Assembly (NCBI RefSeq): GCF_044647545.1
Contig: NZ_CP172818.1
Source: Escherichia coli
Lineage (GTDB): Bacteria; Pseudomonadota; Gammaproteobacteria; Enterobacterales; Enterobacteriaceae
Direction: 5' to 3' (one strand)
DNA: 64,000 nt
Translations under genes and position numbers: made by a program
Shown here: one piece after another, positions 14,523-15,344 of the stretch
How positions within the stretch are numbered: position 1 is the first letter of the stretch
How the letters are laid out: each line of letters begins with the position of its first letter
The notes under the pieces: model-generated
Told to the model about the DNA's origin: nothing
The model's database searches: none
The model's input: the letters and a program-made list of their open reading frames with translations, nothing else

Positions 14523-14606
14523 TCAGTTCAGAAGCTGAAGCAGAAAGCGGATCAGTTCCAGCAGCGCAATTAACGCCCCAAGAACGATGATTGCTTTATC
14601 AATCAC
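14523..14606 (-). CDS. dinQ: DinQ small membrane toxin peptide (type I toxin-antitoxin), 27 aa
   Basis: Minus-strand reading GTG ATT GAT AAA GCA ATC ATC GTT CTT GGG ... CTG AAC TGA translates to VIDKAIIVLGALIALLELIRFLLQLLN; below the ORF-track size threshold; a LexA box lies upstream. Confidence 0.8.
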   Translation of the reverse strand: MIDKAIIVLGALIALLELIRFLLQLLN

Positions 14607-14797
14607 CCGTGTTCTCCATACGATGGAGTGAGAATGCATCCGCTTACTCATCCATTGCCTGTCACGGCGCATGCCCTATTGTTAGATAATGGCATTCTCA
14701 CTCCGGCCAGAGCATCAGTTAACGGCACCACCCGTACCACTGTTCAGGACTTTGAAAGCGTTTATGCGCATTGCCAGAGTGAAAATGCCTCAGAGCT

Positions 14798-14817
14798 AAC
14801 TGGATAATCATACAGTA
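14798..14817. promoter_or_regulatory. LexA (SOS) box in the dinQ promoter region
   Basis: AACTGGATAATCATACAGTA fits CTG-N10-CAG; located upstream (minus-strand sense) of dinQ. Confidence 0.55.
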
Positions 14818-14879
14818 TATTCAGGTTATAAAACCAGCATGTCCTTGCAATAGTTTCAGTATGGTATTAGCATTGATGC

Positions 14880-14963
14880 GTTAGATGATGGCATTCTCAC
14901 TCCAGCCAGAGCCACCAACTCAGGGCTGGAAAGTAAAAAAACCGACGCAAAGTCGGTTTTTTT
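14880..14963 (+). ncRNA. agrA: AgrA antisense small RNA (dinQ regulator)
   Basis: About 85-nt repeat unit gttagatgatggcattctcactccagccagagccaccaactcagggctgg ending in terminator hairpin ccgacgcaaagtcgg plus T7; homologous to a segment of the dinQ leader but read on the opposite strand. Confidence 0.6.
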
Positions 14964-15109
14964 ACATCCGGATTCGGACAAGGCTTAATATGACGATGAC
15001 CCAGTGAAAGTATATAAATCGTCACTGCGATATATACCGAAGTGCCCCCTCCGCCAGCTGAAGAAATCGCTAATTCTTGCAATGTTAGCCACTGGCTAAT
15101 AGTATTGAA

Positions 15110-15192
15110 CCGTTAGATAAGAGCTCTCTCACTCCAGCCAGAGCCACCAACTCAGGGCTGGAAAGTAAAAAACCGACGCAAAGTCGGTTTTT
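15110..15192 (+). ncRNA. agrB: AgrB antisense small RNA (dinQ regulator)
   Basis: Second copy of the repeat (gttagataagagctctctcactccagccagagccaccaactcagggctgg) with the same terminator hairpin and T-run. Confidence 0.6.
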
Positions 15193-15344
15193 TTACGTCC
15201 TGATTCAGGTCTTTTCCAATAAATACCCAACTCTTAACTCACATCTATTACCTTCCTCTGCACATACGCATTCGTTAAACCATATATGTTTTTGACTTAT
15301 CCGCTTCGAAGAGAGACACTAAGTGCAACAATCAGGAGCGCAAT

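Follow-up and report, generated by a model that had tools for sequence, protein, structure and literature searches.

The textbook view of the dinQ locus of Escherichia coli, in which the small RNA AgrB is the antitoxin of the DinQ toxin and AgrA is a dead duplicate, rests on one strain. The gor-arsR intergenic region of another strain, contained in the 64,000-nucleotide stretch of E. coli DNA analyzed here (the window, whose positions are used throughout), raises the question of whether the antitoxin can be recognized by the position of its gene or only by its match to the toxin message.

The gor-arsR intergenic region

This region corresponds to window positions 14470-15345, and dinQ, agrA and agrB lie within 14470-15196. 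The flanking genes, gor (glutathione reductase, 450 aa; plus strand, 13117-14469) and arsR (15345-15698), were taken from the ORF list, with which the annotation of an identical genome agrees. The 876 bp of intergenic DNA were 100% identical to those of several E. coli chromosomes (FDAARGOS_497, ST648, ECONIH1, MS6198 and IMT16316), and the window region was 100% identical to that of ST648-type E. coli genomes.

The window is collinear with dinQ (b4613), agrA (b4712) and agrB (b4713) of K-12 MG1655 (Weel-Sneve 2013, Kristiansen 2016), which occupy the same gor-arsR position: the two strains share the locus, its gene order, strands and spacing, the promoters and terminators, the LexA box and the DinQ peptide, at about 95% DNA identity over the 876 bp. 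The right-hand neighbor is variable, with arsR-arsB in the window and in K-12 and directly arsC in O145, A20 and THO-006, which are without arsRB.

All the features of the dinQ/AgrB family that could be examined were found: the peptide, the sRNAs, their complementarity to the toxin message, the LexA operator, the leader elements and the location between gor and arsR. [quoted passage not shown] A preliminary description of this DNA had proposed the same identity, which is borne out by the presence of every published defining element in the K-12 order. The dinQ gene is the true chromosomal dinQ and not a paralogue of the dinQ-like (dql) type. The system has already been described, and the intergenic locus is ordinary apart from AgrA being the best match of the toxin message.

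The warning that the locus is easy to miss was also justified. Between gorA and arsR, the 100%-identical RefSeq records annotate a single CDS, 'damage-inducible type I toxin DinQ'; agrA and agrB are both without annotation in the record identical to the window, so that an ORF-based reading misses two thirds of the system.

The dinQ gene and its promoter

The dinQ gene (14523-14606, minus strand), annotated in a genome 100% identical to the window, is a 27-codon ORF with a GTG start, nested in an ORF of 49 aa that starts with ATG (14523-14672). Its translation, VIDKAIIVLGALIALLELIRFLLQLLN, forms a single hydrophobic helix, is identical to K-12 DinQ and scored 54 bits against the NCBIfam equivalog NF041472, toxin_DinQ (cut-off 30), which confirms the minus-strand toxin ORF of the preliminary description. 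Directly 3' of the gor stop codon at 14469 lies a hairpin terminator (14476-14506), a perfect 12-bp inverted repeat with a 7-nt loop, common to gor on the plus strand and dinQ on the minus strand. The length published for the dinQ transcript, 331 nt (PMC5066626), together with a start at 14800, places the transcript end at about 14470.

LexA operator 1 (14798-14817) has its CTG-N10-CAG core at 14800-14815 and overlaps the -10 element TATGAT and the +1 position of dinQ. Its minus-strand sequence, TACTGTATGATTATCCAGTT, is identical to the K-12 operator. It is the sole site in the 64-kb window with intact CTG and CAG and at least 15 of 20 consensus matches, where 0.06 sites were expected in shuffled sequences; the LexA box previously noticed upstream of dinQ is thus both unique in the window and the operator known from K-12. 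The K-12 operator has an HI value of 4.83, and a second LexA operator, with an HI of 13.82, lies near the first and overlaps the dinQ promoter (PMC3567139). With this report as a guide, the candidate for the second site in the window is CTGGTTTTATAACCTG on the minus strand (14822-14837), the only CTG-N10-CTG-like element near operator 1, which is a probable, weak LexA operator.

Opposite the dinQ leader, the plus strand contains an ORF of 59 aa (14628-14807). Several RefSeq genomes list the equivalent ORF as a 'hypothetical protein' (WP_001296816.1 / WP_001297979.1, 57 aa); a false gene prediction across the dinQ 5' UTR is the probable explanation. On the same strand a promoter-like element, TTGCCT-N16-TATTGT (14655-14682; 8/12, under the scan threshold), is found just upstream of the repeat copy internal to dinQ. 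If active, it would yield a cis-antisense transcript with an Agr-like 5' end, which could matter in the genomes with the fused deletion described below.

The agrA and agrB genes and their repeat

Both sRNA genes are located on the plus strand. The agrA promoter, composed of a -35 box TTGCAA (14846-14851), a 16-nt spacer and a -10 box TAGCAT (14868-14873), is identical to that of K-12, in which the agrA start site has been mapped (PMC3567139). The agrB promoter, with TTGCAA at 15077-15082, a 17-nt spacer and TAGTAT at 15100-15105, is likewise that of K-12 and aligns with the agrA promoter. The agrA (14881-14965) and agrB (15113-15196) sRNAs were full-length matches to the Rfam family RF02891, AgrB, with 103 and 108 bits respectively (gathering score 40). 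Folding gave z values of -6.4 for agrA and -5.0 for agrB, and each RNA consists of a free 5' end, predicted to be unstructured and containing the antisense region, followed by a stem-loop and a terminator hairpin. According to the Rfam structure and to folding, the terminators are GC-rich hairpins with a U-run; they and the promoters are intact and essentially identical to those of K-12. Two plus-strand copies, each with its terminator, had been recognized in the preliminary description, with coordinates that were right to within 1-4 nt.

Both the agr terminators and the three promoters escaped a consensus scan; the promoters reach 8/12 against a tool threshold of 9/12. The terminators were missed because the stem extension formed by the A-run and the U-run uses up the T tail. 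Weak Rfam AgrB matches, under threshold, were obtained on the minus strand (14933-15023, 32 bits; 15164-15219, 23 bits); these result from the agr terminators being A-run/hairpin/U-run palindromes. The agr terminators are potentially bidirectional.

The locus had been said to contain a triplicated repeat of ~85 bp. Three copies do exist, but only as a core of 33 nt, at 14681-14713 in the dinQ leader, 14880-14912 (94%) and 15112-15144 (85%). Beyond this core the similarity of the dinQ copy to the agr copies was no better than that of shuffled sequence (z = 0.2 and 0.1), and the ~85-bp length does not hold for the dinQ copy. MAFFT can force a faint CACCA...TCAGG..GAAAG alignment over a 24-nt gap, which is probably the source of the longer estimate. 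Only agrA and agrB have a longer unit in common; it measures about 130 nt, starts at the -35 box, extends ~10 nt beyond the terminator and aligns over 76 nt at 88% and 40 nt at 95%, with one 1-nt indel.

Regulatory elements of the dinQ leader

No indels separate the window from K-12 between the Shine-Dalgarno sequence (SD) and the promoter; the K-12 numbering (PMC5066626) therefore transfers directly. The 5' end of the dinQ mRNA on the minus strand (+1 to +28, 14773-14800, with +1 at 14800) contains element 1 (14773-14785), and the homologue of the +44 processing site (U44), putative in the window strain, falls at 14757 on the same strand (numbering from PMC3567139 and PMC5066626). The Agr target, +88 to +119, which is the dinQ-leader copy of the 33-nt repeat and includes element 2, occupies 14681-14713 (minus strand), with +88 to +119 themselves at 14713-14682; the strain-variable 8-nt block of the target is located at 14688-14695. 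Further downstream on the minus strand are element 3, UUCUCACUCCAU (+167 to +178, 14623-14634), which can pair with the SD or, alternatively, with element 2, element 4, the SD itself (GGAG, +184 to +187 in K-12 numbering, PMC5066626; 14614-14617), and the GUG start codon at 14606.

The inverted repeat 14625-14637/14692-14704 is complementary at 13 of 13 positions, and elements 1 to 4, all at positions homologous to those of K-12, are able to form mutually exclusive helices: 1:2 (-37.2 kcal/mol), 2:3 (-25.6 kcal/mol) and 3:4 (-8.3 kcal/mol). The K-12 helices are less stable by 5-7 kcal/mol: stem S1 was calculated at -37.2 kcal/mol in the window against -30.4 in K-12, and duplex 2:3 at -25.6 against -20.1. 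Minimum free energy (MFE) folds of the whole +1 and +44 transcripts failed, even in the case of K-12, to recover the open and closed states of the SD that SHAPE supports; SD accessibility is thus not reliably predictable by folding, and the helix-level energies were used in place of such folds.

A fourth copy of the repeat, inverted and degenerate, forms the 5' end of the dinQ mRNA (+1 to +25; z = 5.6 against the AgrA 5' end) and corresponds to 'sequence 1' of Kristiansen et al. 2016 (PMC5066626). Element 1 is this degenerate inverted copy of the Agr 5' end, and it locks the full-length mRNA, a locking known from K-12. The 3' arm of hairpin SL3, which contains the 8-nt block (+106 to +130), varies with the block, showing 2 compensatory pairs in 9 sequences; its covariation score was reached by 4 of 500 shuffles, and the covariation is suggestive only.

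In K-12, no translation takes place from the full-length dinQ mRNA, in which stem S1 forms and a hairpin holds the SD (PMC3567139, PMC5066626). In the +44 form, which is active, elements 2 and 3 make duplex 2:3 and leave the SD open; AgrB bound to +88 to +119 re-closes the SD and makes a substrate for RNase III, whereas the mismatched AgrA does neither (PMC5066626). The toxicity of DinQ, the processing at +44 and the cleavage of the duplex by RNase III are experimental properties known for K-12 only (PMC3567139, PMC5066626).

Pairing of AgrA and AgrB with the dinQ leader

As expected from the preliminary description, the 5' ends of both agr RNAs are complementary to the dinQ leader, in predicted duplexes with +88 to +119. 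The complementarity is unequal, however, with 31 of 33 positions matched by AgrA and 28 of 33 by AgrB.

Five substitutions between the window and K-12 cluster at 14690-14695, inside the Agr target, which reads GTTAGAT-AAGAACTC-TCTCACTCC... in K-12 and GTTAGAT-AATGGCAT-TCTCACTCC... in the window. The corresponding block is GATGGCAT in the AgrA of the window and GATGGCTA in that of K-12; for AgrB it is AAGAGCTC in the window and AAGAACTC in K-12. For the window, the calculated duplex energy and cofold binding ddG were -58.1 and -38.7 kcal/mol for AgrA and -45.7 and -25.8 kcal/mol for AgrB. For K-12, they were -42.7 and -25.3 kcal/mol for AgrA (identity 26/33) and -58.2 and -39.5 kcal/mol for AgrB (32/33); all are in silico values that ignore kinetics and seed accessibility.

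The order of complementarity is reversed, the two strains being mirror images of each other: AgrA exceeds AgrB in the window and AgrB exceeds AgrA in K-12. The combination of a AATGGCAT target with GATGGCAT in AgrA and AAGAGCTC in AgrB makes AgrA, not AgrB, the best-matching sRNA of the window, and the K-12 rule (distal agrB near-perfect, proximal agrA mismatched) is the sole K-12 property that fails there. By the criterion that separates the active from the inactive sRNA in K-12, AgrA should be the effective antitoxin in the window strain. For the AgrB of the window, the predicted binding is about as weak as for the AgrA that is inactive in K-12; this AgrB may still be partly active, since its identity to the target is slightly above that of the K-12 AgrA.

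Target and sRNA alleles in Escherichia

Allele counts were obtained by 41-nt allele-specific searches of 5426 complete E. coli genomes. The dinQ-target allele of the window was present exactly in 1916 genomes and with one mismatch (O157 type) in 309, and the exact K-12 target allele in 1677; the agr alleles GATGGCAT and AATGGCAT were found in 867 and 1683 genomes. The joint comparison of dinQ and agr alleles covered 30 sampled loci, besides these allele counts from the 5426 genomes. The sample contained the window, 23 other complete-genome E. coli loci and two E. coli-labelled GTDB species representatives, and also took in E. albertii, E. whittamii and Escherichia sp. E1V33.

A separate dinQ target was present in 28 of the 30 loci, and in all 28 at least one agr copy was identical to its own target at 30 or more of 33 positions. 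Which copy that was depended on the allele of the target. For the AATGGCAT or AATGGTAT target the best match was the proximal or only copy in all sampled genomes, bar one tie; with GACGACTA targets included, the proximal or only copy was again the best match, with two ties, in an E. coli O145 strain and in E. whittamii. For the AAGAACTC target, the distal copy was the best match in 7/7 genomes, and across the 30 loci the distal copy was matched by both AAGAACTC and GTGGGCAT targets.

Among the 30 loci the AAGAACTC target was found only in K-12-like E. coli, and in E. albertii, Escherichia sp. E1V33 and the E. coli-labelled representative E69 the target is matched by the proximal or sole copy. 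From this distribution the K-12 configuration is probably the derived one, and it looks to have arisen when an 8-nt block of the AgrB type was transferred to the dinQ leader. The occurrence of the same 8-nt alleles in different copies in different strains indicates sequence exchange among the copies, probably in the form of gene conversion.

These alignments suggest that, in the largest E. coli group, the cognate antitoxin is AgrA (proximal) or the sole copy. On balance, we favor the view that the role of DinQ antitoxin is allelic and not fixed to one Agr paralogue. The sequence data suggest that the assignment of the antitoxin is not transferable to other strains by gene position, and the apparent natural specificity swap in the 8-nt block offers a simple test of target recognition by trans-encoded type I antitoxins. 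In the literature searched, neither the allele swap nor the dinQ promoter deletion described below was explicitly reported. The T1TAdb pipeline takes the more stable of two predicted interactions per strain (PMC8594479), so the allele swap may be implicit there.

Recombination between the repeats

With its repeats, the locus is prone to recombination. In 807 of the 5426 complete E. coli genomes (~15%), including Nissle 1917, a precise 199-bp deletion runs from the dinQ-target repeat to an agr repeat. Lost with it are the dinQ promoter, the LexA box, the leader from +1 to +87 and the agr promoter; what remains is a dinQ ORF that has no promoter and is joined to the tail and terminator of an Agr RNA, and RefSeq still annotates dinQ there. 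An example is found in E. coli THO-006 (positions 1190-1262 of the locus compared); the homologous interval of the window, 14714-14912, is intact. In sequence terms, the loss of the dinQ promoter is a product of recombination between the repeats. Scoring dinQ as present by its ORF alone is thus misleading, as ~15% of genomes carry dinQ without its SOS promoter.

Some E. coli genomes, such as 2015C-3101 and A20, have a single agr gene, the homologous region being window positions 14880-15196. This class made up about 13% of evenly spaced sampled genome matches, and a lone agr copy is present in E. albertii and Escherichia sp. E1V33 too. A single agr gene fits with unequal recombination between the repeat units of agrA and agrB. 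On the allelic view favored above, the three 33-nt copies would form a small family under gene conversion, which would preserve a match to the target in at least one sRNA and also drive the deletions that remove one agr gene or the dinQ promoter. The natural specificity swap and the recombination between repeats are modest additions, of interest to specialists, to a known system.

Alternative readings of the locus

It could be argued that the K-12 rule applies in the window strain too, with AgrB as the working antitoxin and AgrA as an inert, degenerating duplicate. This is the published view for K-12 (PMC3567139, PMC5066626; restated in PMC8594479), and the AgrB of the window, at 28/33, still offers uninterrupted segments of 8, 9 and 8 bp. 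We consider it unlikely for this strain: the target block mismatches AgrB at four positions and AgrA at one; the predicted binding of AgrB is weaker than that of AgrA by 12-13 kcal/mol, which is the gap between active AgrB and inactive AgrA in K-12; and the promoter, 5' end and terminator of agrA are intact. Repression of dinQ by both sRNAs, redundant or graded (AgrA strong, AgrB weak), seems less likely than not. Both RNAs are Rfam-grade members of the AgrB family with intact promoters, both lower the full-length transcript in K-12 (PMC3567139), and two near-equal matches occur in some strains (O145, E. whittamii). Against this, the K-12 sRNA of similar duplex energy (-42.7 kcal/mol) had no effect on SD structure or on in vitro translation (PMC5066626).

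The window could also contain a decaying, functionless remnant of the locus, given that repeat-mediated deletion has removed the dinQ promoter from ~15% of complete E. coli genomes, which indicates that the locus is dispensable in some lineages. In the window, however, every element is intact and the peptide is that of K-12, the allele makes the regulatory helices stronger and not weaker, and the match between target and sRNA is kept across Escherichia species; decay is very improbable here. Nothing was found in favor of the repeats being a chance similarity or a generic, non-regulatory intergenic repeat (REP/BIME-like). Matches of 31/33 and 28/33 within 500 bp far exceed chance, the copies match a curated sRNA family at E = 1e-19 and 1e-18, and in E. 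coli chromosomes the matches are confined to one locus, with at most 3 places per genome, which is the output of the agrA/agrB repeat itself. The repeat comparison, the Rfam matches and the single-locus distribution rule this explanation out.

A model for the control of dinQ

An intact locus in which AgrA is the cognate sRNA can be described by the following model, whose steps on LexA, inert mRNA, processing and Agr pairing are experimental in K-12 and apply to the window by homology; those on AgrA as cognate and on sequence exchange are inferred from sequence. The dinQ promoter would be under LexA repression, and DNA damage would lead to the 331-nt mRNA, with +1 at 14800 on the minus strand. 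In the full-length mRNA, element 1, at the 5' end, would pair with element 2, and the SD would be locked in a hairpin with element 3, so that no translation takes place. Removal of the first 43 nt would free element 2 for element 3 and open the SD, and the 27-aa membrane-depolarizing peptide would be made.

A constitutive Agr sRNA would pair through its unstructured 5' end with +88 to +119 and sequester element 2; with element 2 taken, the SD hairpin would re-form and an RNase III substrate would be created. In the window strain, AgrA, the copy adjoining dinQ, appears best suited to this role, the 8-nt specificity block of the target being AgrA-type. The three 33-nt copies appear to swap sequence, probably by gene conversion, with at least one sRNA staying matched to the target in each intact locus examined.

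Related systems and stray matches

The dinQ locus has similarities to tisB/istR-1, in which a LexA-controlled toxin mRNA is inert until 5' processing (at +42, compared with +44 in dinQ) and a constitutive sRNA, encoded in trans and transcribed divergently, binds the 5' UTR and brings about RNase III cleavage (PMC5066626). There is no sequence relationship between the two; tisB uses a ribosome standby site, whereas dinQ uses the element 2/3/4 switch, and tisB has a single antitoxin RNA, compared with agrA and agrB. A divergent, non-overlapping sRNA gene, pairing in the 5' UTR and a long leader with an active processed form are also reported for zorO-orzO and shoB-ohsC (PMC5397157, PMC5066626). 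Their toxins and RNAs are different from those of dinQ. In both of these systems the toxin-sRNA pair is duplicated as a whole, whereas at the dinQ locus only the sRNA is duplicated, beside a single toxin.

Short contigs filed under non-Escherichia names also matched dinQ/agr: Acinetobacter haemolyticus (424 bp), a Lachnospiraceae MAG (1061 bp) and an uncultured bacterium bin. They match E. coli dinQ/agr in every segment compared, core repeats and flanks alike, and are most likely due to contamination or mis-binning.

The dql genes of enterobacterial chromosomes and plasmids have the same 5' UTR architecture and peptide signature as dinQ (PMC5066626). A further 46 matching places were found on plasmids (e.g. 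NZ_JCAUKO010000003.1) and involved the agr-like part of the query only. These are probably the antisense genes of plasmid dql systems, of which one is discussed for pOXA-48 (PMC12365149).
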